Assembly (NCBI GenBank): GCA_902555435.1
Contig: CACDRL010000001.1
Span: forward strand, 3,758-67,757
Direction: 5' to 3'
DNA: 64,000 bases
DNA from: an uncultured Pelagibacteraceae bacterium
GTDB taxonomy: Bacteria > Pseudomonadota > Alphaproteobacteria > Pelagibacterales > Pelagibacteraceae
The position numbers and the translations under genes are program-made. The notes under the pieces are model-generated. The model made no database searches. It saw only the letters and a program-made list of their open reading frames with translations, and was not told where the DNA came from. Of this stretch, positions 11,762-28,124 are shown piece after piece (positions within the stretch are counted from its first letter, which is position 1; every line of letters starts with the position of its first letter).

Positions 11762-14452
11762 TTATCCAGTATTTTTCATTGCTGCAGAGATACCTGCAAT
11801 CGATGTCATTAAAGCATCTTCAAGAAATTTTTTATCTAAATTTTTATATTTTTTATTTGTTAATTTATTCATGACATTTGCCTGTAGTATATTTAACATC
11901 TCTGTATAATTGTTTCTTATAAATAACGCTTTTCTAAATTCTTTTCTCTCTTTTACCACTTCCTTAGGAGTAATTTTATTATGCAATTTGACCAGTGCAT
12001 CAAATTGAAATCTTAATTTTTTACCAATTCTCTTTAATGAGGCATCAGCTAAATTATTTTCATAAATAACTGATATTTCTGGATCCACCTTAGAAATTAC
12101 CATATCCAAAATATCCATGGTTGATACAAAGTATGGCCAATTTCTTTCCATATCTGTCATTGTTCTTCTAAACTTTTTAATAGAACCATATCTAAGCGCT
12201 TCAGTTGTGCCTAGCCAAGCAGGTAACATTAGTCTAATTTGCGTCCAAGCAAATACCCAAGGAATAGCTCTTAAGCTCTGAATATTGTCGACATTCTTTC
12301 TTTTGGTTGGTCTTGATCCAATAGCAAGCTTTCCAAGTGATTTATGTGGAGTAACCGTTTTGAAGTAACGAATAAAATCCTGACTTTGATTTAGATATTT
12401 TCTGTATGAAGATGTAGAAATTTCTGACATTTTTTGAATTAATTCACGCCAATTAGTTTTTGATCTTGGTGGAGGATTTAAAGAAGCATCCATTACTGAA
12501 CCGATATAGCTACAGAGGTTATATTCAGCTAAAGGTTTGTAACCGTACTTTTGTTGAATTACTTCACCTTGATCAGTAATTCTAATTTTTCCATTAACTG
12601 TACCTGAAGGTTGTGATTTTAAAGTAGCCTGAATTGGACCACCTCCTCTTCCTGGAGATCCGCCTCTACCGTGGAAGAAAACAAGATCTATCTTATATTT
12701 TTTTGCTAAATTTCTAAGCTCCTCTTGAAGTTTGTATTGATGCCAACTTGCAGATAATTTTCCAGCATCTTTACTCGAGTCCGAGTACCCAATCATCACT
12801 TCCTGTTTTGACTTAATCATTTTTCTGTACCATGGAAGTTTGAATAAATTTGTCATGACGCTGTTAGCATTTTTTAGATCATCCAAAGTTTCAAAAAGTG
12901 GCACAACTCTTAATAAATTTTTGGTTTTTGCCTGCATTTGTAAAAAATAAACTGATAAGATATCTGATGCTGTTGAAGTCATTGATATTACATATGCACC
13001 TAGGCATTCAATTGGTGTTTTTGCAATCTGTTTGAAAGTATTCCAAACTTCTTTATTTTCTTTATCTTTTAATTTTATTTTATCTACAAAAGATTTTTTT
13101 TCTTTTATAGATTTATTTAATAATTTTATTTTTTTTTCTTCAGTTAAAGAAGAATATTTTATATTTTTTTTCTTTTTAAAAATTTCGTTTAAAAGTTTTT
13201 CATGTCTATCTGCCTCTTGTCTTATATCTAATCTTGCTAAATTAATTCCAAAACACCTCACTCTTCTCATTAAATCTAATAAGTCTGCGTTTGCAATATG
13301 CTCTCCTCTATTTGCTTTTAATGAGTTTCTTACTTCTCTTAATGGAAGAGTTATTTCGTTTTTATTTTGAATTAATTTTTTTTCATCTAAAGGTACATTT
13401 TTATTTAAATGATTTTCGATTAATTGATGGGTTAGTCTTACCTTGTCTCTAATTGGTCTCAAATAAACTCTATAAGGTTCATAACTGTTTCCTGTTGCTC
13501 TTTTAATTTTTGTTGAGCATTCTTCCATTGATAAATCTTGTATCAATTTAGTAAGTTCTTTCTCATATAATTTTGCAGCTTGCCATCTAGAAAATAAAAT
13601 TACTTTCTTGGTTACTTCTGCAGTTACATTTGGATTTCCATCTCTGTCTCCGCCCATCCATGAACCAAATTGAATAGGATTAAAATCACGAGGCAAATCT
13701 TTCTTTAAATTTTTTCTAAAAATGTCGTTAAGTCTTTTGTAAACTTTAGGAATGGTATCCCACAAACTATCTTCTATTACGGCTAATCCCCATCTTGCTT
13801 CGTCTAATGGAGAAGGCTTTGTTCTTTTAAGTTCATCTGTTTTCCATATTATTGCAATTTCTGAGTATAGTTTTCTATCTAATTCGATGATTTTTGAGGG
13901 GTATTTTTTATAGAGATGTCTATGCTCCATAATTTCAGTTAAATTTGCATATTTTTGAATTAAGGTTCTTCTTTTAACTTCTGTTGGATGCGCAGTAAGA
14001 ACTATTCCAATATCTAGTTTTGTTGCTAAATTATAAATTTTATTATTTGTAATATTTTTATTTTTAAAAAGTCCCTCAATAATATCCTCAATAAATAAGT
14101 TTTGATTTTTGCTTTTAAAGTATGGATTTTCATATTCATTTAATTTTCTAGAAGCATCCAATGACTCAGCTAAATTCATTAAATTAAGGATGTGTGAAAA
14201 AGCCCTTGTGATTTTAAAAGTTTTTTCTGGTGAAAGTTTTTTTACTTCCTTTGATATTTTTGAGAAAACTTTACTTTTATTTTTGTCTGATAAAGTGCTT
14301 TTTGATAATAATCTAAATCTTTCAACAATTTGAAAAAAAACTGAACCTTCTTGATCTTTAATTACTTTTCCTAGGAATGTCCCTAATAATCTAATATCTT
14401 CTCTTAAGAGCTTTGTAGGTATTCGCTCATAGTAAAGATCTCTTTTCTTCAT
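11762..14452 (-). CDS. ppc: Phosphoenolpyruvate carboxylase
   Basis: LTAHPTE, GGDRDGNP, MIGYSDS.KDAG, FHGRGG, SLRAIPWVFAWTQ, terminal MKNTG. Confidence 0.97.
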   Translation of the reverse strand: MKKRDLYYERIPTKLLREDIRLLGTFLGKVIKDQEGSVFFQIVERFRLLSKSTLSDKNKSKVFSKISKEVKKLSPEKTFKITRAFSHILNLMNLAESLDASRKLNEYENPYFKSKNQNLFIEDIIEGLFKNKNITNNKIYNLATKLDIGIVLTAHPTEVKRRTLIQKYANLTEIMEHRHLYKKYPSKIIELDRKLYSEIAIIWKTDELKRTKPSPLDEARWGLAVIEDSLWDTIPKVYKRLNDIFRKNLKKDLPRDFNPIQFGSWMGGDRDGNPNVTAEVTKKVILFSRWQAAKLYEKELTKLIQDLSMEECSTKIKRATGNSYEPYRVYLRPIRDKVRLTHQLIENHLNKNVPLDEKKLIQNKNEITLPLREVRNSLKANRGEHIANADLLDLMRRVRCFGINLARLDIRQEADRHEKLLNEIFKKKKNIKYSSLTEEKKIKLLNKSIKEKKSFVDKIKLKDKENKEVWNTFKQIAKTPIECLGAYVISMTSTASDILSVYFLQMQAKTKNLLRVVPLFETLDDLKNANSVMTNLFKLPWYRKMIKSKQEVMIGYSDSSKDAGKLSASWHQYKLQEELRNLAKKYKIDLVFFHGRGGSPGRGGGPIQATLKSQPSGTVNGKIRITDQGEVIQQKYGYKPLAEYNLCSYIGSVMDASLNPPPRSKTNWRELIQKMSEISTSSYRKYLNQSQDFIRYFKTVTPHKSLGKLAIGSRPTKRKNVDNIQSLRAIPWVFAWTQIRLMLPAWLGTTEALRYGSIKKFRRTMTDMERNWPYFVSTMDILDMVISKVDPEISVIYENNLADASLKRIGKKLRFQFDALVKLHNKITPKEVVKERKEFRKALFIRNNYTEMLNILQANVMNKLTNKKYKNLDKKFLEDALMTSIAGISAAMKNTG

Positions 14453-15338
14453 TACTTAATATAAATTTTTTTTGTAAAACTCCTTTTGCATTTGTTTTTA
14501 CACTAAAAAAGAATCCTGAATATCTAAATTTTCGCAAATCAGCTTTGTCCATTCCTTTTGTTGCAGTTGAAACATACAGTTCTTGATTATTCTTTCCTCC
14601 AAATGCACAATTAGTTATGTTTTTAGCTGGAAATTGAATTCTATGAATTAATTTTGCTCTACTATTAAATACTGAGACACATGCCCCACGAAAATGTGCA
14701 ACCCATAAATTTTTATTTTTATCTAAAGTCATTCCGTCTGGAACTCCTTCCTCAGGTGTTAACTTTTTAAATATTTTTTTACTAATTATTTTATTATTTT
14801 TATTTATCTTAATTTTATAGATAATTTTTTTAGGACTATCAGTGTGGTAAAAGTTATGTTCATCAATAAATGCTGGACCATTTGTAATTCTATAATTTTT
14901 ATCAACTCTAGTTAATTTTAGATTTTTATCTAATTTATACAAAGATCCTTTTTCAATTTTTCTCTCTAAATTATCCATAGTACCAAACCAAAGATTTCCA
15001 GCAGGATCGGTTTTACCATCGTTTATTCTATTTAACTTTATTTTTGGCTCTATAGGTATTGATTTTAAAACTTTTTTTGATTTTAAATTTTGAATTCTTA
15101 ATTCACCTTGCAATCCTAAAATAAATATATGATCTTTTATATGAGCAATGAAACCTACTTCTTTATTAACTTTAAAGATTTTCTTTTTTTTATTTTTGAT
15201 ATTTAAAGAACAAATTTTTTTTTTCTTTATATCTACAAAATAAATACAGTTATGCTCTTTAACCCAAAGTGTTCCTTCACCTAAAGTACATCTTATTTTC
15301 CAAATTGCTTTTGGTTCTGTAGTTTTAATTTTATTCAT
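14427..15338 (-). CDS. SMP-30/gluconolactonase family sugar lactonase (XylC-like)
   Basis: LGEG, RINDGK.DP.G.LWFGTM, TNGPAF, PDGMTLD, TNCAFGG. Confidence 0.9.
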   Translation of the reverse strand: MNKIKTTEPKAIWKIRCTLGEGTLWVKEHNCIYFVDIKKKKICSLNIKNKKKKIFKVNKEVGFIAHIKDHIFILGLQGELRIQNLKSKKVLKSIPIEPKIKLNRINDGKTDPAGNLWFGTMDNLERKIEKGSLYKLDKNLKLTRVDKNYRITNGPAFIDEHNFYHTDSPKKIIYKIKINKNNKIISKKIFKKLTPEEGVPDGMTLDKNKNLWVAHFRGACVSVFNSRAKLIHRIQFPAKNITNCAFGGKNNQELYVSTATKGMDKADLRKFRYSGFFFSVKTNAKGVLQKKFILSNEEKRSLL

Positions 15339-16503
15339 TTACCTCAAACTCTTTAATAAAGTCTTCATTGGGGTTTATACCAATACCTACATTGTCTGTC
15401 ACTGATGCAAATCCATTATTATTTTTGACCTGATCTAAAATTGAAAAATTCTCTTTTGGTAAATCTGTAATAAATATATTTTTCTCTGTCGTATCAAACT
15501 CTAGCATAGATTTTGTAGGGAATAGTCCCCCTGGCATGTCGGGTTGTGCAGTCAACAAATGAAGATTTACCGCTATACTTACAGCAGATCCCCAAACATG
15601 ATTGATTACTGGAACAAAGTTAGCCTGAGCTAAAGCTGCAACCTTCAAATATTCAGTGATGCCACCTAAACCACACACCTCTGGTTGAGCTATATCAATG
15701 CATTCATTGGTAATTAATTTATTCCATCCATACTTTGTAAATTCTGCTTCACCCCCTGCCACACTGGTTGATATTTTTTTTTTCAATTCTCGATAACCAT
15801 TGTAATCTTCAGGAGCAACAGGTTCTTCAAACCAATAAATATCTAATTCATCAAGTCCTTTTCCAACATAAAGAGCATCTTTCAAATTATAAGTATGGTT
15901 AGCATCCACCATTAATTTAAAATCTTTACCTATAGAATTTCTAACTGCTTGAACTAACTTTAAATCTTCTTTTGGGCCCAATCCAACTTTCATTTTCATG
16001 GCTTTAAAATTTTTTGATTTAATTTCTTTTGACTCTTCTTGAAATAATGGAATTAATTCATCAACTGATTTTTTTTGTAACATCATTCCATATCCATACA
16101 CAGGAACTTCATTGTTACATTTTCCGCCAACAAGTTGGTAGAGAGGAGAGTTTGTTTTTTTTCCTAAGATATCCCATAGAGCTATATCCACTCCTGACAA
16201 AGCTTGTATTGGCATTCCTTTTTGACCGCTATCTCTTAAAAGATTGTAGACTTTTTGCCAGATATGTTCTTTATTCAATGGATCTTCGCCAATTACTAGA
16301 GGCTGAATTACCTTTTCAACTATATATTTATTGGCTAAAGCAATATTACCTGGACCAAAACACTCTCCCCATCCAGTAATACCTTCGTCGGTTTGTACTT
16401 CAACTAAATGAGCTGTACGGTGCTTATAATATTGTTGTGAATAACCTAATTCTTTTTCTAACTCATATTTAAGTACATGACTTTTAATAGAAGTTATTTT
16501 CAC
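15331..16503 (-). CDS. Mandelate racemase/enolase superfamily enzyme, galactarolactone cycloisomerase (Gci)-like
   Basis: KMK, DANH, WFEEP, GGE, HVWG, LEFD; recalled similarity to Agrobacterium Gci (LRD.GQ.G, HVWG). Confidence 0.8.
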   Translation of the reverse strand: MKITSIKSHVLKYELEKELGYSQQYYKHRTAHLVEVQTDEGITGWGECFGPGNIALANKYIVEKVIQPLVIGEDPLNKEHIWQKVYNLLRDSGQKGMPIQALSGVDIALWDILGKKTNSPLYQLVGGKCNNEVPVYGYGMMLQKKSVDELIPLFQEESKEIKSKNFKAMKMKVGLGPKEDLKLVQAVRNSIGKDFKLMVDANHTYNLKDALYVGKGLDELDIYWFEEPVAPEDYNGYRELKKKISTSVAGGEAEFTKYGWNKLITNECIDIAQPEVCGLGGITEYLKVAALAQANFVPVINHVWGSAVSIAVNLHLLTAQPDMPGGLFPTKSMLEFDTTEKNIFITDLPKENFSILDQVKNNNGFASVTDNVGIGINPNEDFIKEFEVNE

Positions 16504-16509
16504 AAAAAA

Positions 16510-17352
16510 TTACAAAGCAACTACTTTAGAGTTTTGCTCTCCTAGGTTTTCAATTGATAATTTCATTGTATCACCAGCTTTCAAGAATTGTTGAGGTTTC
16601 ATTCCCATACCAACTCCGGGAGGCGTACCTGTTGTAATAATATCACCCGGTTGTAATGACATAAATTTACTCAAATAAGAAACAATAATGTTAACATCAA
16701 AAATCATAGTATTAGTATTTCCAGTCTGCATTCTTTGACCATTAACATCTAAACTCATTTTTAAATTATTAATATCAGCAATTTCATCTTTGGTTACCAA
16801 GTAAGGTCCAATCGGTCCATAAGTATCATGAGATTTTCCTTTAACCCATTGACCCATCTTTTCTATTTGCCATTCTCTTTCGCTAATATCATTGACCAAA
16901 CAATATCCTAAGATGTGATCTTGTGACTGAGCTTCTGAAATATGTTTTGTATGTTTTCCAATTACAATTCCTAATTCTACTTCCCAGTCTAATTTTTTTG
17001 AACCTGAAACAATTTCAATGTCATCGTTAGGACCATTAATACAACTTGTAGCTTTCATAAAAGTAATTGGTTCAGATGGAACCTCTGCCCCTGTTTCTGC
17101 AGCGTGATCTGAAAAGTTTAAACCTATTGCAACAAATTTTCCTGGTTTTGTAATACATGAACCAATTCTTTCACTTGAAGATAATTCAGGAAGAGACGAT
17201 AAATCAGCATTTTGTAAATTTGAGATAGTTTCAAAATTTAAATGATCAGGATTTAAATCTGAAATATGTGAACTGATATCTCTGATTTTTCCATCTTTGT
17301 CTAAAGCTGCTGGTTTTTCTTGTCCTTTTTGACCTACTCTTAATAATTTCAT
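16510..17352 (-). CDS. Fumarylacetoacetate hydrolase family protein (2,4-diketo-acid hydrolase type)
   Basis: IGLNF.DH, DWEVELG, NDISER, GKS.DT, TGTPPGVG. Confidence 0.9.
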   Translation of the reverse strand: MKLLRVGQKGQEKPAALDKDGKIRDISSHISDLNPDHLNFETISNLQNADLSSLPELSSSERIGSCITKPGKFVAIGLNFSDHAAETGAEVPSEPITFMKATSCINGPNDDIEIVSGSKKLDWEVELGIVIGKHTKHISEAQSQDHILGYCLVNDISEREWQIEKMGQWVKGKSHDTYGPIGPYLVTKDEIADINNLKMSLDVNGQRMQTGNTNTMIFDVNIIVSYLSKFMSLQPGDIITTGTPPGVGMGMKPQQFLKAGDTMKLSIENLGEQNSKVVAL

Positions 17353-17373
17353 AATTGTCCTTTTGTTATTAAA

Positions 17374-18117
17374 TTATATTGAAATTCCGCCATCAACATG
17401 AATTGTACTTCCTGTTGTAAATGTTGCATCATCACTTGCTAGATAAACTGCAACTGCAGCAATCTCTTCTGCTGTACCTAATCTTCCCATGGGTTGTCTT
17501 GCTATAAAATCTTTTTTTGCCTGAACTGGATCTGGGCTCTGGTTTACTCTATCTTGCCAAGAAGGTGAAAATACTGTTCCAGGTGCAATTGAATTACATC
17601 TGATATTTTGTTTAACAAAATCTGCTGCAATCGCTTTTGTTAAACCAATAACTGCTCCCTTTGTTGTTCCATAAACAAATCTATTTGGAAAACCTTTAAA
17701 ACTTGATGCACATGAAGATATATTAATAATACTTCCACCATTTTGTTTGATCATTAAAGGTAAAATAGCTTTGCACATAAAGTACATCGACTTAACGTTT
17801 ACATTAGAAGAAAAATCCCAATCTTTTTCATCACATTCTAATATTGTTCCATGATGAACAAAACCAACAGCATTAAACAAAACATCAACCTTATCTAAAG
17901 TTTTAGTAAATTCTATAATTGCATTGTTATCAGTTGAATCTAATTTTTGCACTTTTATCTCAGGATATTCTTTATTTAAATCAGCTAAGGTTTTATCATT
18001 TAAATCGGTTGCAGTGACATGAGCGCCTTCTTTATGAAATGCAATTGCAGTTGCTTTTCCAATTCCTTGACCTGCAGCTGTTACAAGAATTTTTTTACCT
18101 TCTAATCTTCCACTCAT
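17374..18117 (-). CDS. SDR oxidoreductase, 2-keto-3-deoxy-sugar-acid 4-dehydrogenase (DHRS6/KDF dehydrogenase-like)
   Basis: TAAGQGIG, YGTTK (YxxxK), AADF...IRCN.I.PGT..SPS. Confidence 0.8.
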   Translation of the reverse strand: MSGRLEGKKILVTAAGQGIGKATAIAFHKEGAHVTATDLNDKTLADLNKEYPEIKVQKLDSTDNNAIIEFTKTLDKVDVLFNAVGFVHHGTILECDEKDWDFSSNVNVKSMYFMCKAILPLMIKQNGGSIINISSCASSFKGFPNRFVYGTTKGAVIGLTKAIAADFVKQNIRCNSIAPGTVFSPSWQDRVNQSPDPVQAKKDFIARQPMGRLGTAEEIAAVAVYLASDDATFTTGSTIHVDGGISI

Positions 18118-18983
18118 TTTTTATTTATCCTTTCGATTTCATTATAAAGTGAACTATGATCAGTGTTTCCATGACCATTATCGACAAGGGTCTTATACAT
18201 TTCTTTCACTAAATTTGAAATAGGTAAATGTGTATTATATGAATTTGCACACTCTAAAATGTTATTCATGTCTTTCAAATGAGTGTAAGTCTTACCCTTT
18301 GGACTAAAATCTTTGTCTATCATTCTTTTTCCATGAGTTTGTAAAATTTTACTATCTGCCCAACCTCCAGAAAGAGCTTTAATCAATTTATTAGGGTCAG
18401 CTCCAGCCTTTTCACACAATGTTATGGCTTCAGCAACAGCACCTATTGTAACCCCAACAACAATTTGATTTGCTAGTTTTGAAACTTGTCCACTTCCAAC
18501 TGGTCCGACTAATGTTGGGTTTCCCATTGCCTTTAAAATTTTTTCAGAATTATCAAAAACACTTTGTTCTCCACCAACCATTATAGCTAGTGAAGCTTCT
18601 TCTGCTCCAATAGTTCCTCCTGAAACTGGTGCATCTAAATAATTTACATTTTTCGATTTTAAATTTTCTCTATGTTTTATTGCTGTTGTGGGTTTAACAG
18701 AACTCATATCAATAACTGTTGAGCCAGATTTTAAGTTGTCTAAAAAATCTGTACTAGAAGTTATTGCATCAACTGCACTATCATCAGTTAACATGGTAAA
18801 AATAAAATCACTGTCCTTTACTACATTACTTATTGATTTTGAAATTTCTGCACCGAACTCTTTTAGTGGTTCTGCTTTTTCTATTGATCGATTAAAAGCT
18901 TTTAATTTAAATCCAGATTTTAATATATTTTTAGCCATTGGAAGGCCCATCAGGCCTGTTCCAATAAATCCAATTGTTATCAT
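18114..18983 (-). CDS. 3-hydroxyisobutyrate dehydrogenase / 2-hydroxy-3-oxopropionate reductase family protein
   Basis: GFIGTGLMG, DAPVSGG, KLANQ catalytic Lys. Confidence 0.88.
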   Translation of the reverse strand: MITIGFIGTGLMGLPMAKNILKSGFKLKAFNRSIEKAEPLKEFGAEISKSISNVVKDSDFIFTMLTDDSAVDAITSSTDFLDNLKSGSTVIDMSSVKPTTAIKHRENLKSKNVNYLDAPVSGGTIGAEEASLAIMVGGEQSVFDNSEKILKAMGNPTLVGPVGSGQVSKLANQIVVGVTIGAVAEAITLCEKAGADPNKLIKALSGGWADSKILQTHGKRMIDKDFSPKGKTYTHLKDMNNILECANSYNTHLPISNLVKEMYKTLVDNGHGNTDHSSLYNEIERINKK

Positions 18984-20296
18984 GGTTTAGGTTTAAATTC
19001 GTGGAAGTTTTGTGTCATTGCTTCAGGGAAGAACATAACACATGCTAATACAATTAATTGGATTACTATAAACGGTGCAAAACCTCTAAAGATATCTGTT
19101 AAAGATATATGAGGAGGAGCGACCGATTTTAAATAGAAAGCAGCGGGCCCAAATGGTGGGCTTAAAAATGAAACTTGCATGTTTACACAGAATAATATTC
19201 CGAACCAAATCGGATCAAAACCAAGTGCAATCACTATAGGTAAAAATACTGGCATTGCTAACAATACAATTCCAACCCAATCCATAAATGCTCCCATGAT
19301 TAAGAACATAATCTGCATCATGAAAATTAAATACATTGGTTTTAAATCATAAGCTAAAATTGTTTCTGCTACATATTTTGGACCACCAGCAAGAGAATAA
19401 GCTCCTGCTAAAACTGTTGCACCAAAAGTAATAGTCAAAATAGTTCCAGATGCTTTGAAAGTTCTTGTTAATGCATCTTTAAATAAAAACCATGTCAGTT
19501 CTTTTCTTGCAAAAATAATAATTAAAGTAGCAACAACACCCATTCCTGCCGCTTCAGTAATACCAGTCATTCCAGAATAAATTGAACCTAATACAATAAT
19601 TACAATTCCAATTGGTGGAAGAAGACCTGGAAGGTAAGACATTTTTTCTTTTAATGTTAAAGCTGGCTCATCACTTAATGGAGCTAAATGAGGTTGTAAC
19701 CTTGTTCTAATAAGAATGTATGTAATAATTAAACCTGAAATCATTAAACCTGGAACAATTGCTTCTTGGAATAACATGGTAATAGAAGTCTCTGTTGTTA
19801 ATCCATAAATAATTAAAACAATCGATGGAGGTATCATTGTTCCTAAAGATCCAGATGCACAAATGATACCGATAGACATGTCTTGATCATATTTAAGTCT
19901 CAACATTTGTGGTAGTGCGATTAATCCTAATAAAACTATTTCTCCTCCAATAATTCCGCTCATTGCAGCCATGATGGTTGCCATGATTGCAGTAACTACA
20001 CCTACTCCACCTCTAGTTTTTCTTAACCAAGCGTTTAAAGCATCATAAAGATCTCTTGCAATGTTCGAGCGTTCGAGCAAGGACGCCATAAAGATAAATA
20101 AAGGCACAGATAAAAATGAATAAGTAACGACTAATGAGTAATATCTTGAAAGCAATATTCCTAATGCATGCTCACCTATATATAAAAATACTAGTACTGC
20201 ACCCATAAACCCTGATGCAAAACCCATCGGAACACCTATAGATATAAGTAATAATAATCCAACTATAAGTATTATCGAAAGTGATCCAATATCCAT
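18980..20296 (-). CDS. dctM: TRAP transporter large permease
   Basis: VPLFIFM, G.LGTMIPPS, FGILF..N.Q...L.PPFG. Confidence 0.93.
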   Translation of the reverse strand: MDIGSLSIILIVGLLLLISIGVPMGFASGFMGAVLVFLYIGEHALGILLSRYYSLVVTYSFLSVPLFIFMASLLERSNIARDLYDALNAWLRKTRGGVGVVTAIMATIMAAMSGIIGGEIVLLGLIALPQMLRLKYDQDMSIGIICASGSLGTMIPPSIVLIIYGLTTETSITMLFQEAIVPGLMISGLIITYILIRTRLQPHLAPLSDEPALTLKEKMSYLPGLLPPIGIVIIVLGSIYSGMTGITEAAGMGVVATLIIIFARKELTWFLFKDALTRTFKASGTILTITFGATVLAGAYSLAGGPKYVAETILAYDLKPMYLIFMMQIMFLIMGAFMDWVGIVLLAMPVFLPIVIALGFDPIWFGILFCVNMQVSFLSPPFGPAAFYLKSVAPPHISLTDIFRGFAPFIVIQLIVLACVMFFPEAMTQNFHEFKPKP

Positions 20297-20892: not shown

Positions 20893-20916
20893 TGAAGGGC
20901 CTTCGCAGGCCCTTCA
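20893..20916 (-). terminator. GC-rich stem-loop after dctP (terminator or mRNA-stabilising hairpin)
   Basis: TGAAGGGCCT-TCGC-AGGCCCTTCA perfect 10-bp inverted repeat; no clean U-tract. Confidence 0.7.
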
Positions 20917-20928: not shown

Positions 20929-21945
20929 TTACATAATGCCATTAGCTTTCATGTAAGCTTTGTGTATTTCAATCAAAGCAGCAGCTTCTGGAGATTTAGT
21001 CTTCCATTCTTCCCAAGCAGCAAGTGCAGCTGTTCTGAATTTAAGTCTATCTTCTCTAGACCAGTCATGAAGAGTAACGCCCATTTCATTTAAAGCTTTA
21101 ACAGCTTCAGCGTTTTTTCTCTCAACTAAACTAGTAATAGTTCTTCCAGCGATTTCTATTCCTGCTTTCATAGCACCTTGCTCATGAGGCTTTAACTTGT
21201 TCCAAACTTTTGTGTTACAAGCTAAGTGGTCAGCCGGCATAGAGTGGAAACCTGGGTATGTAGCATATTTGTTTTGCTCATAGTGTCCACCAGCATAGTT
21301 AGTTGCTAAAGATGAATAGTCAGCACCATCGATTAGACCAGTTTGTAAAGCTGTAGGAACTTCACCAAAGTCCATTACGATTGGTTTTGCACCTAAAGTT
21401 GTAAAGATCATACTTTCCATTCCTGGAGGCGATCTAAATTTAAAGTCTTTCAATGAAGCAACATCTGGAATTGGTCTGCTAGAAATTAAAGACTCGTGTC
21501 CTGGTATCCACCAACCAATTAAAGTCATTCCATATTTGTTGTAAAGTGCATCAACAGCTTCTTGAGCTCCTGGGAAATTCAAGAATTCATATTGTTGGTA
21601 TGGGTTATCGTATCCACCCATTACATCACCTGCGAATTGGAAAGCTGCATTTTTACCAGTTTGGTAACCAGCACCAGTCATATCACAATCGATAATACCA
21701 GTTTGTGCAGAGTTAAATACCTCAGCAGATTTACCTGTTACTGAAGATGAGTAGAACATTTCAATTTTCAAGCTTCCACCAGAAAACATTTCTACATTTT
21801 TTGCGAACTGAGCCGCAACTTCACCATTTGGTGAACTAGCAGTAAAGTGAGTTTCAATCTTTAAAGTCTTTGCATTTGCAGAGCCAAATAAAGCAACTGA
21901 AACCATAGCCACTGCTGCTAAAGTTTTAGATATTAATTTAAACAT
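20929..21945 (-). CDS. dctP: TRAP transporter substrate-binding protein
   Basis: Signal peptide, KFRSPPG (conserved Arg), EVPTALQTG.IDG; start moved to ATG 21945 behind a GAGGA SD. Confidence 0.92.
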   Translation of the reverse strand: MFKLISKTLAAVAMVSVALFGSANAKTLKIETHFTASSPNGEVAAQFAKNVEMFSGGSLKIEMFYSSSVTGKSAEVFNSAQTGIIDCDMTGAGYQTGKNAAFQFAGDVMGGYDNPYQQYEFLNFPGAQEAVDALYNKYGMTLIGWWIPGHESLISSRPIPDVASLKDFKFRSPPGMESMIFTTLGAKPIVMDFGEVPTALQTGLIDGADYSSLATNYAGGHYEQNKYATYPGFHSMPADHLACNTKVWNKLKPHEQGAMKAGIEIAGRTITSLVERKNAEAVKALNEMGVTLHDWSREDRLKFRTAALAAWEEWKTKSPEAAALIEIHKAYMKANGIM

Positions 21946-22001
21946 TATCTTCCTCTCGTTTATGTTTTTTCGAAAGTTAATCATAAATGATTTTCTATTT
22001 C

Positions 22002-22019
22002 AATTAAATCGGTTTAATT
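22002..22019. promoter_or_regulatory. Putative LacI-family operator
   Basis: AATTAAATC|GGTTTAATT, 18-bp palindrome with one mismatch and central CG, upstream of dctP. Confidence 0.55.
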
Positions 22020-22070
22020 ATTATATATAGAAATTATATATATTTTATAAACATAGAACTTAGAATTGTT

Positions 22071-23039
22071 CTAAATTACTTCTGAAATCAAGGGTTTTTT
22101 ATTAAAAAAACAACAAATATTGTCAACTGCCATCATGCTCATTGCAAGACGTGTTTCATGTGTCGCACTACCTACGTGTGGAAGAACAAAACAGTTATCT
22201 AATTTTAAATATCTCTTATCTAAATTTGGTTCATTGTTAAATACATCTAAGCCTGCTGCATAAATTTTTTTATTTTGTAATGCATCTATCAATGCATCAT
22301 CATCAATTGTTGATCCTCTTGAAGTATTTATCACGACAGCATGTTTGGGTAATAAACTAATTGTATCTTTGTTTAAAATATATTTTGTTTCTGCAGTTGC
22401 TGGGGTGTGTATGCTTACAAAATCACAGTTTGGTAACATTGAATTTAAATCTGAATAATATTTCGCACCATCTTCTAAATCATCAGAAAGTTTATTCCTA
22501 TTGTAATAAATTATTTTCATCCCAAATGCTTTTGCACATTTAGCTGCCATTCTTCCTATTCGCCCCATGCCAATGATACCTAGAGTTTTGCCAGTGACTG
22601 AATTACCAATCATAAATTTAGTTAAATCAGGTTTTTGATTTTTCCAATTATCAGTTCTTACTAAATTATAAGCTTCACCAATTCTTCTTGATGCAGCCAA
22701 AATTAAAAGAATTGTAAGCTCTGCAACAGCTTCATTTAATACATTGGGTGTATTAGTAACTTTTATATTTTTTTCTAAAGCTGAGTTAATAGATATATTA
22801 TCGTAACCTACGCCTACCTGAGCAATAATTTTTAATTTACCATTAAGATTATTAAAAAAATTCTCTCCAATTTTATCAAATCCTGTGGAAATCATCCCAT
22901 CATAGTCGTTAATAATTTTAATTAACTCACTTTCAGGAATTGGTTCATCTTTTAGATTAAAGGTTACATCAAACTCTTTACTAAGTTTTTCTTCTGCTAA
23001 ATCTGAAATTTTTCTAGAAACTAATATCTTTTGTTTCAT
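22071..23039 (-). CDS. D-2-hydroxyacid dehydrogenase (glyoxylate/hydroxypyruvate reductase, GhrB/GyaR-like)
   Basis: VTNTP.VL, GIIGMGRIG, INTSRG, GLDVF..EP, LPHVGSAT. Confidence 0.9.
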   Translation of the reverse strand: MKQKILVSRKISDLAEEKLSKEFDVTFNLKDEPIPESELIKIINDYDGMISTGFDKIGENFFNNLNGKLKIIAQVGVGYDNISINSALEKNIKVTNTPNVLNEAVAELTILLILAASRRIGEAYNLVRTDNWKNQKPDLTKFMIGNSVTGKTLGIIGMGRIGRMAAKCAKAFGMKIIYYNRNKLSDDLEDGAKYYSDLNSMLPNCDFVSIHTPATAETKYILNKDTISLLPKHAVVINTSRGSTIDDDALIDALQNKKIYAAGLDVFNNEPNLDKRYLKLDNCFVLPHVGSATHETRLAMSMMAVDNICCFFNKKPLISEVI

Positions 23040-24824
23040 TTAATGTGAATCTCTAGGTAAACCTTTTGTGTGAGATACATCCAAATATTTTCCTCTAGAA
23101 TTAATACATGCACCATCATCCAGTTGACCTACAGTATTCCTAAATATTTCTTGCCAAGGTGTTTGGTTATTTGGTTTAAATACTTTTTTGTTTTTTCTAC
23201 GTTTTTTAAATTCAGCTTGAGAAATCAACAAATCAACTCTTCTTTTATTTAAGTCTATTTTTATTTTATCGTAAGTTTTTACAATGCCTAGATCTCCGCC
23301 TACCGCTGACTCTGGTGAAACATGAAGTATTGATGGGCTTTCTGATGTTCCGCTCTGTCTTCCATCTCCAAGAGTTGGTAAATGTCTTATTCCTTTTTTT
23401 AATAATCTGTCTGGTGGTTGCATGTTAACTACTTCTGCTGATCCAGGATAACCAACAGGTCCACAACCTCTAATAATTAATAAAGAGTTTTCATCTATTT
23501 TTAACTTCTTATCATTAAGTCTTTTATGATAATCTTCAGGACCTTCAAAAACTATAGCTTTACATTCAAAAACATTTGGATGTTTAGGATTTGATAAATA
23601 TTGATCTCTAAATTCTTTGCTGATTACTGATGTTTTCATGATAGCGGATGAGAAAAAGTTACTTTTCATAACTAAAAATCCAGCTTTTTCAGTTAATGCA
23701 TTCTTAAATGTTTTGATTACTTTATTGTCTATATCAACTTTCTTTCTTAAATTTTCTCCTACAGTTTTTCCTGTAACTGTCTTTATTTTTGTATGAATTT
23801 TTTTGTTTTTAATTAATTCTTTCATTACAGCTGGTATTGCTCCAGCTCTATGAAAACTTTCCATTAAATATTCTCCTGCGGGTTGGCAATTCACTAATAA
23901 AGGAATGTTATGCCCAAGTTTTTGCCAATCAGAAAGATCAAATTTAATTCCCATATGCTTCGCAATAGCACTTAGATGAGCTGTGCAGTTGCTTGATCCA
24001 CCAATAGCACTTGCAACCACTACTGCGTTTTCAAAAGCTTTACGTGTCATAATTTTTGAAGGAGTTAAATCTTCATGAACCATTCCAACAATTCTTTTTC
24101 CTGTTTCATAGGAAATTTGTTCTCTTTCTCTATAAGGAGCTGGAATAACTGCACCCCCTGGTAGAGACATTCCTAAAGCTTCAGCAACAGAGTTCATTGA
24201 AGAAGCTGTTCCCATAGTATTACAATGTCCAGCACTTGGTGCAGAAGATGCAACCATATCCATAAATTCTTCGTATTTAATTTCTCCTTTGGCTAACATT
24301 TTCCTTGCTTCCCAAACTACCATTCCTGAACCAGCTAATTTTCCTTTGTAAACTCCATCTAACATTGGACCACCTGATAAAACTATTGCAGGAATATTTA
24401 CCGTTGCTGCTGCCATCAAAGCAGCTGGAGTAGTTTTGTCACATCCTGTTGTTAGGATAACTCCATCAATTGGATATCCATACAAAACTTCAACTAGTGA
24501 CAAATAAGAAAGATTTCTATCCAACATTGCTGTTGGTCTTTTTCCAGTTTCTTGAATTGGGTGGGTAGGAAATTCCATTGGAATCCCACCAGCTCTTCTA
24601 ATTCCATCTTTTATTCTTTTACTCAAAGACATGAAATGCCTGTTGCATGGAGAAAGATCACTGCCAGATTGTGCTATTCCAATAATTGGATTTCCAGATT
24701 GTAATTCTTTTCTTGTAAGACCATAATTTAAATACCTTTCTAGATATAAAGCCGTCATGTCAGGGTTTTTTGGGTTATTGAACCACTGTTGACTTCGGAA
24801 ACTCTTTTTTCTTTTTTTAGGCAT
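23040..24824 (-). CDS. xylD: IlvD/Edd-family aldonate dehydratase, D-xylonate dehydratase (XylD)-like
   Basis: WF.NP...DMTALYLER, SDLSPCN, GCDKT, GHCNTMGTAS, SAEVVNMQPP, GDGRQSGT; closely matches the recalled Caulobacter XylD sequence. Confidence 0.75.
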   Translation of the reverse strand: MPKKRKKSFRSQQWFNNPKNPDMTALYLERYLNYGLTRKELQSGNPIIGIAQSGSDLSPCNRHFMSLSKRIKDGIRRAGGIPMEFPTHPIQETGKRPTAMLDRNLSYLSLVEVLYGYPIDGVILTTGCDKTTPAALMAAATVNIPAIVLSGGPMLDGVYKGKLAGSGMVVWEARKMLAKGEIKYEEFMDMVASSAPSAGHCNTMGTASSMNSVAEALGMSLPGGAVIPAPYREREQISYETGKRIVGMVHEDLTPSKIMTRKAFENAVVVASAIGGSSNCTAHLSAIAKHMGIKFDLSDWQKLGHNIPLLVNCQPAGEYLMESFHRAGAIPAVMKELIKNKKIHTKIKTVTGKTVGENLRKKVDIDNKVIKTFKNALTEKAGFLVMKSNFFSSAIMKTSVISKEFRDQYLSNPKHPNVFECKAIVFEGPEDYHKRLNDKKLKIDENSLLIIRGCGPVGYPGSAEVVNMQPPDRLLKKGIRHLPTLGDGRQSGTSESPSILHVSPESAVGGDLGIVKTYDKIKIDLNKRRVDLLISQAEFKKRRKNKKVFKPNNQTPWQEIFRNTVGQLDDGACINSRGKYLDVSHTKGLPRDSH

Positions 24825-24870
24825 AATTAATATAATGGTTTGTTTAACTTATTGGTTATATAATAAATTT

Positions 24871-26376
24871 ATGAATAATCTAATAGTTTTAAATGGCAAT
24901 GACAATGTTGGCGTAAGTCAATTTATCATACCAGAAAAAACAAAAATTGAAGGTCATGATATAAGTACATTGGATCCAATCCCTTTTGGTCATAAAGTAT
25001 GTTTAAAAGAGATTAAAAAAGGTGATCCTATTATCAAATATGATCAAATTATTGGTTTTGCATTAGATGATATTAAGCCTGGTCAGCATGTTCATTCACA
25101 TAATTTAGAATTTAGAGAGTTTAAAAGAGATTTTAAAGTCACAGATAAAAAACATATTATTGATGAAAAAGCAGACACCTTCTTTAATGGAATTTTAAGA
25201 GATAATGGACAGGTTGCTACAAGAAATTACATTGGAATTGTAAGTACTGTTAATTGCTCAGCAACTGTCACTAAGATGATCGTTGAGAGAATTAAATATT
25301 CTGACATTTTAAAAGATTACCCAAACATTGATGGCATAGTACCAATTACTCACTCTACAGGATGTGGAATGAATACTGAAAGTGAAGGAATGCAAATTTT
25401 TCAAAGAACTATTGATGGATTTAAAAATCACCCTAATTTTTCTCATGTTTTTGTTATAGGTTTAGGATGTGAATGTGCGCAAGTCAGTTTGTTTGATGAA
25501 TCATTAAAGAAACATAACCGAATTCATTTTTTAACTATCCAAGATGAAGGCGGAACTAAAAAAATAGTAGAGAAAGTATTGTCTCAAATTAAAAATTTAC
25601 TTTCAGAAGCTAATAATGTTCAAAGAACTTCTCAACCAGTAAGTCATCTTACTTTAGCTCTTCAATGTGGTGGTTCTGATGGATATTCTGGTATAACAGC
25701 AAATCCCGCATTAGGAGTCGCAGCAGATCTCTTAGTTAAAAAAGGTGGAAGTTCAATTTTATCAGAAACTCCAGAAATTTATGGAGCTGAACATTTGTTA
25801 ATTAATAGAGCTAGCTCACAAGAGACTGCTGATAAGCTTATAAAAAGAATTGAATGGTGGAGACATTATACTTCAATCAATAAAAGTTCTATGGATAACA
25901 ATCCTGCACCAGGAAATAAAAAAGGTGGTCTTACTACTATATTAGAAAAATCTTTAGGTGCTGTTGCAAAAGGAGGAAATTCTATCCTTCAAGATGTATT
26001 GCACTATGCAGAGCCTTTAAAAAACAAAGGTTTTAATTTTATGGACTCACCAGGCTATGATCCTGTATCAGTTACTGGTCAAGTCGCATCAGGTGCAAAT
26101 GTAATTTGTTTTACAACTGGACGTGGATCTTGCTTTGGTTGTAAGCCAGTACCAAGTTTAAAACTTTCTACTAACTCAGCAATGTTTGAAAGAATGTCTG
26201 AAGATATGGATATTAATTGTGGGACAATTGCTGAAGGAAAAGAAAAAGTTGAAGAAGTTGGTCAAAAAATATTTGAATTAGTTGTAAATACTGCATCAGG
26301 AAATAAATCAAAAAGTGAAATCAACGGCTACGGTGACGAGGAGTTTAATCCTTGGCAAGTTGGCGTTGTAATGTAA
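24871..26376 (+). CDS. uxaA: UxaA/GarD (altronate dehydratase) family dehydratase with N-terminal SAF domain
   Basis: PFGHK, GLGCE, LQCGGSDG.SG.TANPA.G, NP.PGN..GGL.T..EKSLG; start moved to ATG 24871. Confidence 0.8.
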   Translation: MNNLIVLNGNDNVGVSQFIIPEKTKIEGHDISTLDPIPFGHKVCLKEIKKGDPIIKYDQIIGFALDDIKPGQHVHSHNLEFREFKRDFKVTDKKHIIDEKADTFFNGILRDNGQVATRNYIGIVSTVNCSATVTKMIVERIKYSDILKDYPNIDGIVPITHSTGCGMNTESEGMQIFQRTIDGFKNHPNFSHVFVIGLGCECAQVSLFDESLKKHNRIHFLTIQDEGGTKKIVEKVLSQIKNLLSEANNVQRTSQPVSHLTLALQCGGSDGYSGITANPALGVAADLLVKKGGSSILSETPEIYGAEHLLINRASSQETADKLIKRIEWWRHYTSINKSSMDNNPAPGNKKGGLTTILEKSLGAVAKGGNSILQDVLHYAEPLKNKGFNFMDSPGYDPVSVTGQVASGANVICFTTGRGSCFGCKPVPSLKLSTNSAMFERMSEDMDINCGTIAEGKEKVEEVGQKIFELVVNTASGNKSKSEINGYGDEEFNPWQVGVVM

Positions 26377-26388
26377 TTAAAATTTCCT

Positions 26389-27252
26389 GTGCCACAACAA
26401 ACATCATTAATTAATGTAATTTTATTAGCTGCTGGTGGTTTTTTTATGTTCGTTTGTATGGACTCTACAGCAAAATATCTTGGAACTGTAATGCCTATTA
26501 CTCAAGCAATTTGGGGAAGATTTTTTTTTCACTTGTTATCTTTAATTATTTTTTTTTTAATTTTTAAGCCAAAAGTAAATTTAAAGAAAAATTTTAAAGT
26601 ACAAATAATTAGATCAATATTAATGGTTACTGCTACCACATTTATGTTCTATTCTTTGCAGAAATTTGACTTGGTAGATATTTATGTTGTTTTTTTTACA
26701 GCTCCTTTAATCGTTTCATTGCTTTCAGCATACTTTCTAAAAGATATCTTGAGTACAAAGGGCATACTTTTAATGTTATTGAGCTTTGGCTCGATTGTTT
26801 ATTCACTAGGTCCAAGCATGAGAATATTTAGTTTAGATTTAATATTCCCAATTGTTCCTCCAATTTGCTGGGCTCTTTATCAATTTTTTACCAAAGTTGT
26901 ATCAGGTGATAACGATCCATTTGCTGCTATATTTTATACTTCAATTTTAGGTGCAATAATTTTTAGTATTTTTATATTTTTTAATTGGGTGCCATTAGAG
27001 AAGAATATCTTTTGGCTTTATTTGGTAATTCTAGGTGTGGCAGGTTTTGTAAGTCATTCTTTAATTATATATGCAATACAACTTTCTAACTTGTCATTTG
27101 TAACTAATTTTCAATATTCTCAATTAGTTTGGTCTACAATTATTAATTTCTTCATTTTCGGCGTACCTTTTGATTATAATAAAATTGTTGGGGTGATAGG
27201 AATTATTGTTTTTGGTATTATGTTCATAAGAACAGAAGGTAAAAAAAGTTAA
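26389..27252 (+). CDS. DMT/EamA family permease
   Basis: About 10 TM in a duplicated EamA pattern; GTG start. Confidence 0.85.
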   Translation: MPQQTSLINVILLAAGGFFMFVCMDSTAKYLGTVMPITQAIWGRFFFHLLSLIIFFLIFKPKVNLKKNFKVQIIRSILMVTATTFMFYSLQKFDLVDIYVVFFTAPLIVSLLSAYFLKDILSTKGILLMLLSFGSIVYSLGPSMRIFSLDLIFPIVPPICWALYQFFTKVVSGDNDPFAAIFYTSILGAIIFSIFIFFNWVPLEKNIFWLYLVILGVAGFVSHSLIIYAIQLSNLSFVTNFQYSQLVWSTIINFFIFGVPFDYNKIVGVIGIIVFGIMFIRTEGKKS

Positions 27253-27266
27253 ACAGTGAGGTTTGA

Positions 27267-28124
27267 ATGAAAAATATAGGCTTTATCGGTGTTGGATATA
27301 TGGGCTATGGAATAGCTAAAAATATTCTAAAACATAAAAATAATCTTTTTGTCATTGCTAATAAAAATAGAAAACCTATTGAGAAAATTATTAGCGATGG
27401 AGCTGAAGAAGTAAAATCTTTTGAAGATTTTTCTAGTAAAAATTTAGATGCGATGTTTATGTGTGTTACCAACACTCCTATAGCAAAATTAATTTCTGAA
27501 AAAATATCTGATATTTTAGATGGTAAAACTTTAATTATTGATATCACTACTCACAATAAAACTGGCTCAATGGAAACTGAGGAAATATTCAAAGCAAAAA
27601 ATATTAATTATGTTGAATGTCCTGTAATGGGAGGACCTGTTCAAGCAGAGGAAGGTATATTAGGAGGAATTGTTGGAGCCTCAGATGAAAATTTTAAAAT
27701 TGCTGAGCCATACTTTAATTTTTTTTGTAAAGAATATTTTCACTTTGGACCTGTTGGAATGGGAGCAAAATCTAAGCTTTTAAATAATTTTTTATCCCTT
27801 GGAAATGCTGCATTAGTTAATCATTTAGCTAAAAGCGCTAAAGAAATGGGTTTAGATTTAAAAAAAGTATTTGATGTTGCAAAACTTGGTTCTGGAAATT
27901 CTGCAGCTCTAAATCGAGTTTTTGATAATCTGTTAAAAGGAGATTTTACAGGCTTTAAATTTACTGCAAGTAATTCAGTTAAAGATTTAACTTACATTCA
28001 AGATCTTTTAAAAGATTTTCCTGAGGCTGAAAGAGTTGCTGAAGTAAATAAAAACTATTTCCAAAAAGCTGTTGATGACGGTTATGGTGAAAATTTTATT
28101 AGTGAATTAATAAATAAAAAATAA
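27267..28124 (+). CDS. NAD(P)-dependent beta-hydroxyacid dehydrogenase (HIBADH/6PGDH family), second paralog
   Basis: GFIGVGYMG, ECPVMGGP, KLLNN. Confidence 0.85.
   Translation: MKNIGFIGVGYMGYGIAKNILKHKNNLFVIANKNRKPIEKIISDGAEEVKSFEDFSSKNLDAMFMCVTNTPIAKLISEKISDILDGKTLIIDITTHNKTGSMETEEIFKAKNINYVECPVMGGPVQAEEGILGGIVGASDENFKIAEPYFNFFCKEYFHFGPVGMGAKSKLLNNFLSLGNAALVNHLAKSAKEMGLDLKKVFDVAKLGSGNSAALNRVFDNLLKGDFTGFKFTASNSVKDLTYIQDLLKDFPEAERVAEVNKNYFQKAVDDGYGENFISELINKK

Follow-up and report, generated by a model that had tools for sequence, protein, structure and literature searches.

The "glycolysis operon" of the SAR11 bacterium Candidatus Pelagibacter ubique HTCC1062, with its proposed Entner-Doudoroff (ED) variant, was reportedly described by Schwalbach et al. 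in 2010, and the L-fucose pathway of Xanthomonas campestris, in which XCC4067 is said to be the 2-keto-3-deoxy-L-fuconate (L-KDF) dehydrogenase, by Yew et al. in 2006. In the literature, the SAR11 sugar pathway is termed an ED variant or non-phosphorylative ED. The enzymes of Route III, a non-phosphorylative pentose pathway, in Herbaspirillum huttiense comprise C785_RS00855 (D-xylonate dehydratase), C785_RS13685 (UxaA-type D-arabinonate dehydratase), C785_RS13675 (4-dehydrogenase for 2-keto-3-deoxy-D-pentonate (D-KDP) and L-KDF), and C785_RS20550 (hydrolase) (Watanabe et al. 2019, PMC6336799). Our literature search, whose coverage did not extend to the original Schwalbach paper, found no work connecting SAR11 to Route III or to a route through a short-chain dehydrogenase/reductase (SDR) and an FAH-family enzyme. 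Here, we analyzed a 64,000-nucleotide stretch (the window) from an uncultured Pelagibacteraceae bacterium (assembly GCA_902555435.1, contig CACDRL010000001.1, positions 3,758 to 67,757), in which positions 14427-28124 hold a sugar-acid gene cluster beside the PEP carboxylase gene ppc. The cluster represents a TRAP-carrying form of the "sugar island" that SAR11 genomes have beside ppc, and probably a variant of the known Route III pathway. As judged from its sequence, its most likely role is the import of sugar acids and their cleavage, with neither kinase nor aldolase, into pyruvate and a small hydroxy acid.

This Pelagibacter (SAR11) cluster is real and conserved. Its products were assigned to families by Pfam, NCBIfam, and PDB searches together with a listing of open reading frames (ORFs). 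All gene families named in an earlier interpretation made from the letters alone (the sequence-only reading) were found, with a Pfam, NCBIfam, or PDB match for every gene. In the same searches, no kinase, aldolase, aldose dehydrogenase, or aldehyde dehydrogenase family matched any of the 13 cluster products; the absence of an aldose dehydrogenase, a sugar kinase, a 2-keto-3-deoxy-6-phosphogluconate (KDPG) aldolase, and a ketoglutarate-semialdehyde dehydrogenase claimed earlier thus holds for this set. The minus strand is read in the order IlvD/Edd dehydratase, 2-hydroxyacid dehydrogenase (2HADH), DctP, DctQ, DctM, β-hydroxyacid dehydrogenase HIBADH1, SDR, FAH, enolase-family enzyme, lactonase, and ppc, and the genes for a UxaA/GarD-family dehydratase, an EamA transporter, and HIBADH2 lie on the plus strand, diverging from the IlvD/Edd run. 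Spacing between genes ranges from -26 to +86 nt, and the GC content of the window is about 30%. The full gene set was present in identical order at 61 of the 65 related Pelagibacteraceae loci with enough flank, and the cluster is therefore regarded as a selected unit. Loci with 88-100% identity to the window FAH protein all came from Pelagibacteraceae single-cell genomes, metagenome-assembled genomes, and HIMB isolates.

The Route III assignment is carried by two neighboring genes. The first (16510-17352, minus strand) encodes an FAH-family 2,4-diketo-3-deoxy-acid hydrolase of the LRA6/FucG type. Its best solved relative was L-2,4-diketo-3-deoxyrhamnonate hydrolase LRA6 (8gsr; 294 bits, 51% identity), the next match scoring 179 bits, and its best NCBIfam model, NF053535, describes the same hydrolase (398 bits, under the equivalog cut-off of 500). 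In C785_RS20550, His83 and Glu86 form the hydrolase-specific catalytic pair, as contrasted with the glutamate of 2-keto-3-deoxypentonate (KDP) dehydratases (PMC6336799). His83 and Glu86 stand at exactly those positions in the window FAH and were invariant among its aligned SAR11 relatives, which places the protein with the FAH-family C-C hydrolases that have a His/Glu/water triad rather than with the KDP dehydratases. An XylX-type identity, i.e., a 2-keto-3-deoxy-D-xylonate (KDX) dehydratase, on which the sequence-only reading would have foundered, was ruled out by the residue pattern and the best matches. The source assembly, which is 94% complete and to which all absences from this genome refer, contained only two FAH-domain genes, both with the hydrolase-type dyad. 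The second, whose product is 31% identical to the window FAH, was considered as a marker of a second sugar cluster and rejected, since its neighbors are aromatic-type and unrelated: C3:59690-65981 (locus L081, 6690-12981) encodes an FAD monooxygenase, an extradiol dioxygenase, DctP, the FAH hydrolase, DctQ, and DctM, and is adjoined by a sulfatase gene.

The second gene (17374-18117, minus strand) encodes an NAD+-type SDR of the type-1 L-KDF/D-KDP (4S-hydroxyl) 4-dehydrogenase kind, which is homologous to human BDH2 (2ag5; 303 bits, 57% identity) and to the H. huttiense L-KDF 4-dehydrogenase (8xwk; 260 bits, 52% identity). The catalytic, ligand, and cofactor-determining residues of L-KDF 4-dehydrogenase (L-KDFDH) have been defined (PMC11199699). 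Ser135, Tyr149, Lys153, Arg146, Thr181, Arg190, and Arg207 of the window SDR aligned with Ser137, Tyr151, Lys155, Arg148, Thr183, Arg192, and Arg214 of 8xwk, respectively. The Ser-Tyr-Lys catalytic triad and the type-1 R-T-R-R pattern of carboxylate/hemiketal ligands, which mark the protein as an L-KDFDH-type SDR, were invariant in five homologues and across the SAR11 variants, and the Asp-hydrophobic pair for NAD+ preference is conserved as Asp38-Leu39. Enzymes of this class oxidize the 4(S)-hydroxy acids L-KDF, 2-keto-3-deoxy-L-galactonate (L-KDGal), D-KDP, and, weakly, 2-keto-3-deoxy-D-gluconate (D-KDGlu) (PMC11199699). Trp252 of L-KDFDH, which touches C6 of L-KDF, was replaced by Ile in all SAR11 sequences and was Trp in a non-SAR11 homologue. 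The ability of the SDR to oxidize 2-keto-3-deoxy acids, on which the earlier proposal also hinged, is suggested by its R-T-R-R pattern. Residues and relatives of both proteins support the view that the SDR-FAH pair catalyzes the last steps of a non-phosphorylative sugar-acid pathway of the diketo-hydrolase ("Route III") type.

The upper part of the pathway was assigned from a lactonase and a dehydratase. The SMP-30/gluconolactonase-family protein (14427-15338, minus strand; Pfam SGL, 221 bits) is an XylC-like aldonolactonase, its best solved relative being the Caulobacter xylonolactonase XylC (7plb, 142 bits), and it is present in every variant of the locus. The IlvD/Edd-family aldonate dehydratase (23040-24824, minus strand) is XylD-like, of the D-xylonate/D-gluconate type. 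It matched 7m3k (850 bits), Caulobacter XylD (5oyn, 799 bits), and NF009560 (1007 bits, over the cut-off of 684), and would be the acid-sugar dehydratase yielding a 2-keto-3-deoxy acid. XylB-, XylC-, and XylD-type enzymes commonly accept both xylose- and glucose-series substrates. Two XylB-like aldose 1-dehydrogenases are encoded elsewhere in the genome, on contigs C4 (320 bits to NF053674) and C9 (303 bits), which explains the retention of the lactonase in the cluster. One of them stands beside an importer and a mutarotase: C4:181-7359 (locus L165) brings together a CUT2-type ABC sugar importer, a PhyH dioxygenase, the XylB-like SDR, an aldose 1-epimerase, and a Gfo/Idh/MocA oxidoreductase, and is likely an aldose-oxidizing upper pathway feeding the window lactonase. 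The pathway is thus not restricted to imported aldonates or lactones, as had been supposed. Contig C9 ends within an SDRa-ROK pair. Elsewhere, this pair stands ahead of the glucose ABC module, which may thus be unassembled in the present genome. The same end of C9 carries a catabolic island (C9:36000-48868, locus L164) with a PanB-like protein, an HpcH/HpaI aldolase, an aldehyde dehydrogenase, a thiamine pyrophosphate enzyme, a Gfo/Idh/MocA protein, the XylB-like SDR, a PdxA-like protein, a TctCBA transporter, an SDR, and the truncated ROK gene.

Comparison with other SAR11 genomes indicated that the site beside ppc is a modular island with several gene-content forms. In the minimal form, IlvD/Edd stands alone, divergent from a HIBADH1-SDR-FAH-lactonase run. 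A second form consists of a ROK protein, a sugar ABC importer, and an XylB-like SDR followed by IlvD/Edd-SDR-FAH-lactonase, and the form in the window adds TRAP and accessory genes to the core. In at least 20 loci, the ABC module was fused directly to a window-type cluster, adjoining the EamA gene on the HIBADH2 side. In HTCC1062 (L163, G120:C1:745000-764999), the operon runs solute-binding protein, two permeases, ATPase, XylB-like SDR, IlvD/Edd, SDR, FAH, lactonase, HIBADH1, FAH2, and ppc. Its products were 77% (IlvD/Edd), 90% (SDR), 78% (FAH), 62% (lactonase), 70% (HIBADH1), and 60% (second FAH) identical to those of the window, and its solute-binding protein matched 8hqq, the glucose-binding SAR11_0769 (906 bits), which confirmed the identity of this locus. 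SAR11_0769 is the glucose/galactose-binding protein of HTCC1062 (Clifton et al. 2024, PMC11485210). The window cluster occupies the same position upstream of ppc with the same dehydratase, SDR, FAH, and lactonase, and both a SAR11_0769-type glucose ABC importer and an aldose 1-dehydrogenase are absent from the window. The statement that the cluster differs from the known SAR11 glucose/ED-variant operon was therefore mistaken: the two are variants of one ppc-adjoining locus with a common enzyme core, and the Route III core of the window is thus also that of the classical "glycolysis operon". An FAH ortholog was present in 58 of 74 high-quality family genomes, and the FAH core in 12 of 19 genera. 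Two hydrolase-type FAH paralogs bracket the lactonase and HIBADH1 in HTCC1062 (L163, 8243-11735), and the HIBADH1-FAH2 pair occurs alone in another Pelagibacter genome (L162).

The ppc gene itself (11762-14452, minus strand; Pfam PEPcase, 908 bits) is a conserved downstream neighbor. It directly follows the lactonase gene in most variants examined, with HIBADH1 and the second FAH intervening in HTCC1062, and an ORF of 894-896 aa downstream of the lactonase in L066, L062, and HTCC1062 fits ppc by size and position. The lactonase gene overlaps ppc by 26 nt (14427-14452) and the enolase-family gene by 8 nt; given the former overlap, the anaplerotic PEP carboxylase may be co-transcribed with the sugar pathway.

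Considering the observed gene content, family and residue assignments, synteny, and distribution, we find it reasonably probable that the cluster combines a kinase-free, aldolase-free oxidative Route III core in the sense of Watanabe with an accessory acid-sugar module, and the assignment to Route III is well supported at the level of sequence. We infer substrates, products, and the direction of the dehydrogenases from homology, residues, and context. The XylC-like lactonase would open an aldonolactone. From the resulting aldonate, of D-xylonate or D-gluconate type, the XylD-like IlvD/Edd enzyme would remove water and so form a 4(S)-hydroxy 2-keto-3-deoxy acid. The NAD+-dependent L-KDF/D-KDP-type SDR would then oxidize C4, and the LRA6-type FAH would cleave the 2,4-diketo acid into pyruvate and a 2-hydroxy acid. 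The hydroxy-acid product or keto-aldonates are probably the substrates of the dehydrogenases resembling tartronate-semialdehyde reductase (TSR) and GhrB. The TRAP transporter, the enolase-family enzyme, the UxaA-like dehydratase, and EamA would form the accessory module, bringing in one or more further acid sugars.

Three hydroxyacid dehydrogenases are encoded in the cluster. HIBADH1 (18114-18983, minus strand) is TSR-like: it reached 291 bits with TIGR01505, under the cut-off of 341, its best PDB matches (4dll, 1vpd, and 1yb4) are all TSR, and it is retained in the minimal locus variant and in HTCC1062. Its predicted role is that of an oxidoreductase for D-glycerate or another 3-hydroxyacid. 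The GhrB-like D-isomer-specific 2HADH (22071-23039, minus strand; Pfam 2-Hacid_dh and 2-Hacid_dh_C) resembles glyoxylate/hydroxypyruvate/2-ketoaldonate reductases (NF009714, 298 bits, and GhrB, 226 bits, both under cut-off). The second, divergent β-hydroxyacid dehydrogenase, HIBADH2 (27267-28124, plus strand; Pfam NAD_binding_2, 94 bits, and NAD_binding_11, 49 bits), gave weak NCBIfam matches only. D-Glycerate is a classical substrate or product of both the TSR and the glyoxylate/hydroxypyruvate reductase types. A search of six Pelagibacter genomes (the present one, HTCC1062, and four complete relatives) for glycerate kinases of classes I and II gave no match; together with the TSR-like and GhrB-like enzymes, this makes a dehydrogenase route for glycerate plausible. 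We tentatively suggest, as a possibility somewhat short of an even chance, that the SAR11 "glycolysis operon"/ED variant is no ED pathway but actually Route III, lacking kinase and aldolase, in which 2-keto-3-deoxy acids derived from glucose, xylose, or acid sugars would yield pyruvate and free D-glycerate, glycolate, or lactate; the window would then hold its acid-sugar version, fed by TRAP. In view of the missing class I/II glycerate kinase, the TSR-like and GhrB-like dehydrogenases of the cluster would oxidize the hydroxy-acid half, which would then be transaminated, so that sugars would feed the glycine/serine and pyruvate requirements.

Several observations weigh against the Route III core. 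The NCBIfam equivalog cut-offs were not reached by the FAH (398 vs 500 bits), HIBADH1 (291 vs 341 bits), 2HADH, UxaA-like, or enolase-family proteins. A characterized L-KDFDH has a kcat/Km of 75 for D-KDGlu vs 7900 for L-KDF (PMC11199699), and a flux from gluconate therefore needs a shifted SDR specificity. With no class I/II glycerate kinase found, the fate of any glycerate is unexplained. The genome also contains an HpcH/HpaI-family aldolase gene with an adjacent aldehyde dehydrogenase gene (C9:37525-39765) and a second DHDPS-family gene (C5:1235-2050), through either of which 2-keto-3-deoxy acids could have another fate. Finally, a non-SAR11 locus carrying related genes (L181, see below) encodes DgoK together with a KDPG-type aldolase, and its 20 kb contained no detectable FAH.

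A first alternative is that of the sequence-only reading: a pentonate funnel for xylonate and arabinonate, delivering pyruvate and glycolate and thereby meeting both SAR11 requirements free of ATP cost. We consider it unlikely in this form. The XylC- and XylD-like enzymes, with XylB-like ones elsewhere, favor D-xylose/D-xylonate, as does the CUT2-type ABC importer beside an XylB-like SDR and mutarotase in the same genome, and the SDR and hydrolase of H. huttiense turn D-KDP into glycolate (PMC6336799). By the established chemistry (PMC6336799, PMC11199699), the window hydrolase would release, besides pyruvate, the part of the substrate from C4 to the end as an acid: pentonates would give glycolate, gluconate would give D-glycerate, and fuconate L-lactate. 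However, in HTCC1062 a glucose/galactose-binding protein feeds the homologous core, so that a hexonate (gluconate) is implied as the substrate there and glycerate as the product, and the two best-assigned dehydrogenases resemble enzymes with D-glycerate as substrate or product. Given this feed and the broad substrate ranges of XylB, XylC, and XylD, glycolate is a possible product but is not specifically predicted; the claimed "pyruvate + glycolate" stands for pentonates and falls as a general product.

The proposed link from glycolate to glycine needs a glycolate oxidase, and neither GlcD nor FAD-oxidase_C was found in the 94%-complete assembly. NAD-linked glycolate oxidation is thermodynamically unfavorable, which also counts against this alternative. 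On the other hand, GlcD-like genes are present in five close relatives; the strain may truly differ from these, as HTCC7211 does, or the gene may fall in a gap of the assembly. An LldD-like flavoenzyme is encoded at C2:977-2068. In HTCC1062, which has glcDEF, glycolate replaces glycine, and the use of glycolate is strain-dependent (PMC6775983). The sequence-only reading is thus partly supported, with its account of glycolate and a dual auxotrophy reduced to a minority sub-case of the Route III reading.

The substrates of the accessory genes were considered next to this core. DctM (18980-20296; Pfam DctM, 252 bits), DctQ (20298-20867; Pfam DctQ, 82 bits), and DctP (20929-21984; Pfam DctP, 150 bits) are encoded by adjacent genes on the minus strand and constitute a complete TRAP system, of large and small membrane subunits and solute-binding protein. 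The best PDB match of DctP was 4pe3 (171 bits), its ligand is expected to be an organic acid, and its orthologs were restricted to the genus of the window (g1), where they occurred in 19 of 36 species representatives. The enolase-superfamily protein (15331-16503, minus strand; Pfam MR_MLE_N and MR_MLE_C) belongs to the mandelate-racemase subgroup and is a predicted acid-sugar dehydratase or cycloisomerase. The UxaA/GarD-family acid-sugar dehydratase (24835-26376; Pfam SAF, GD_AH_second, and GD_AH_C) and the EamA (DMT-superfamily) membrane transporter (26389-27252; two Pfam EamA repeats) are encoded on the plus strand, and the EamA gene is kept next to the UxaA gene in SAR11.

Among 300 other Alphaproteobacteria, 8 had an ortholog of the enolase-family enzyme (55-62% identity). 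In three of these non-SAR11 genomes (L176, L178, and L181), the orthologs stand beside DctP and DctQ orthologs (46-50% identity) and a PhyH dioxygenase; a DctM ortholog (52% identity) was scored in L181 only. L181 also carries IlvD/Edd-2HADH, UxaA-HIBADH-EamA, and an L-KDFDH-like SDR, with the EamA-family gene near the UxaA gene. Because the TRAP and enolase genes are linked outside SAR11, the TRAP ligand is probably the substrate of the enolase-family enzyme. The accessory genes seem to have been inherited as a module, which speaks against three independent "entries", and the earlier idea of three dehydratase-family enzymes as parallel entries found no support, as the TRAP and enolase genes travel as one module outside SAR11. 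DctP/DctQ, enolase, and PhyH recur as a module in those taxa, and the SAR11 cluster contains no PhyH gene. A second acid-type cluster was located by tblastn at C4:48803-70482, with a UxaA/SuyAB-like dehydratase as two adjacent pieces, EamA, two SDRs, HIBADH, DctP, and DctM.

This linkage bears on a second alternative, in which a TRAP/enolase/UxaA-GarD-like/TSR-like module handles aldarates, aldaro-lactones, or anhydro-sugar acids (galactarate, glucarate, or 3,6-anhydrogalactonate), whose 2-keto-3-deoxy products would enter the SDR/FAH step. We judge it rather improbable. TRAP binding proteins need an acid group in their ligands, which agrees with such substrates. The nearest solved relatives of the enolase-family enzyme were 5olc (279 bits; deposited as "galactonate dehydratase"), which we take to be 3,6-anhydro-D-galactonate cycloisomerase, and 4ggb (272 bits; deposited as "putative uncharacterized protein"), presumably galactarolactone cycloisomerase, and the L-talarate/galactarate dehydratase model matched at 166 bits. 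Against all NCBIfam equivalogs, however, its scores were far under cut-off, and a homologue search returned only near-identical SAR11 metagenome proteins with uninformative names. Similarly, the sole NCBIfam and PDB relatives of the UxaA-like protein were GarD (E. coli GarD 6u7l, 312 bits; TIGR03248, 386 bits, under the cut-off of 731), yet UxaA-family enzymes active on D-arabinonate, L-fuconate, and L-galactonate are documented (PMC6336799 among the sources). HIBADH1 resembles GarR, but it is part of the core, which the minimal variant and the glucose operon have as well. Of the Gar pathway, the cluster encodes only GarD-like and GarR-like proteins, both scoring under their cut-offs, with no HpcH-type aldolase and no GarL, GarK, or KdgD.

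A third alternative, which we regard as very improbable, is that 2-keto-3-deoxy acids are metabolized through the Weimberg pathway, a Dahms/Route I aldolase, or a semi-phosphorylative ED pathway encoded elsewhere, the SDR and FAH doing something else. The literature name "ED variant" agrees with it, and candidate genes exist in the genome: a PfkB-family kinase (C2:73572-74348), in addition to the HpcH/HpaI aldolase with aldehyde dehydrogenase (C9) and the DHDPS-family protein (C5) mentioned above. However, KDPG aldolase (Eda, PF01081), the mark of the classical or semi-phosphorylative ED pathway, was found neither in this genome nor in any of 201 Pelagibacteraceae genomes, while the same search matched 9 of 14 control genomes. 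The Weimberg pathway lacks both its KDX/KDP dehydratase and its α-ketoglutarate-semialdehyde dehydrogenase in the cluster, and neither FAH gene of the genome is XylX-type. Moreover, every variant keeps the SDR and FAH genes side by side and together with those for the dehydratase and lactonase, and the candidate genes are unlinked to the locus.

In a last alternative, cyclic amino-acid derivatives (cis-4-hydroxy-L-proline/4-oxoproline or hydroxyproline-betaine-type compounds) would be the substrates of both the SDR and the enolase-family enzyme. This idea has its attractions in the closer similarity of the SDR to BDH2, a 4-oxo-L-proline reductase, than to bacterial L-KDFDH, in the hydroxyproline dehydratases/epimerases of the enolase superfamily (cis-3-hydroxy-L-proline dehydratase model, 106 bits), and in the PhyH dioxygenase that accompanies the TRAP-enolase pair in other taxa, but it is highly doubtful, as BDH2 oxidizes L-KDF as well as the bacterial enzyme does (PMC11199699), the SDR gene is fixed beside those for the diketo-acid hydrolase, aldonate dehydratase, and lactonase and lies inside the glucose operon of HTCC1062, and the enolase-family enzyme scores higher against acid-sugar enzymes.

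Possible control elements were also examined. In the 61-nt spacer after dctP and before dctQ, a terminator-like scan detected a perfect palindromic hairpin with a 10-bp stem at 20893-20916 (TGAAGGGCCT TCGC AGGCCCTTCA). It is possibly an intercistronic stabilizer or attenuator, and could raise the level of binding-protein mRNA over that of membrane-subunit mRNA. The divergent IlvD/Edd and UxaA-like ORFs start, as called, just 10 nt apart. The real UxaA-like start may be the second ATG, at 24871, which would give a control region of 46 nt. A promoter scan of the region yielded fewer sites than shuffled sequence would give.

The cluster is of moderate interest owing to the abundance of SAR11, the most abundant surface-ocean heterotroph, whose few carbon-entry routes shape models of marine carbon flux. 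If the core is Route III, SAR11 would use sugars with no up-front ATP cost and no triose phosphate, and would release a C2 or C3 hydroxy acid, the fate of which bears on the glycine/serine and pyruvate requirements. The TRAP variant was present in roughly half of the Pelagibacter species representatives that were sampled, and it points to dissolved acid sugars as an unrecognized class of substrates.

Compared with the known systems, the cluster resembles the E. coli galactarate/glucarate pathway in having a GarD-family dehydratase and a GarR-like tartronate-semialdehyde reductase, but it lacks the GarL aldolase and GarK kinase and scores well under the equivalog cut-offs. It resembles the Caulobacter crescentus xylXABCD (Weimberg) system in its XylC-like lactonase and XylD-like dehydratase (799 bits), with XylB-like dehydrogenases elsewhere in the genome (302-320 bits). 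In SAR11, however, an SDR and a hydrolase-type FAH replace the XylX-type KDX dehydratase and the XylA dehydrogenase, and the predicted end products are pyruvate and a hydroxy acid instead of α-ketoglutarate. The Xanthomonas L-fucose pathway and the Sphingomonas L-rhamnose LRA5/LRA6 pathway also use an SDR 4-dehydrogenase and an FAH diketo-hydrolase, giving pyruvate and L-lactate, and the SAR11 FAH is 51% identical to LRA6. Unlike those pathways, SAR11 has an enolase-family enzyme that is not FucD-like by the libraries used, and its dehydratase is of the IlvD/Edd type; its SDR is of the 4(S) L-KDF type, in contrast to the 4(R) type of LRA5, and it has neither a fucose mutarotase nor a cog3618 lactonase. 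With the HTCC1062 glycolysis operon, the cluster has in common the site upstream of ppc, the dehydratase, SDR, FAH, lactonase, and TSR-like dehydrogenase. The glucose ABC importer, XylB-like aldose dehydrogenase, and second FAH paralog belong to the operon only, and TRAP, the enolase-family enzyme, the UxaA-like protein, 2HADH, EamA, and HIBADH2 to the window cluster only; many genomes fuse both modules. H. huttiense differs in having Route II genes (KDP dehydratase and α-ketoglutarate-semialdehyde dehydrogenase), and SAR11 in having Ile for Trp252 of the SDR and in keeping all genes in one compact cluster, which also encodes a TRAP importer, three hydroxyacid dehydrogenases, and an additional enzyme of the enolase family. 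Nevertheless, both have IlvD/Edd and UxaA-type dehydratases, an L-KDFDH-type SDR with identical ligand residues, and an FAH protein with His83/Glu86, and the H. huttiense products, pyruvate and glycolate or lactate, follow the same logic as that proposed for SAR11.

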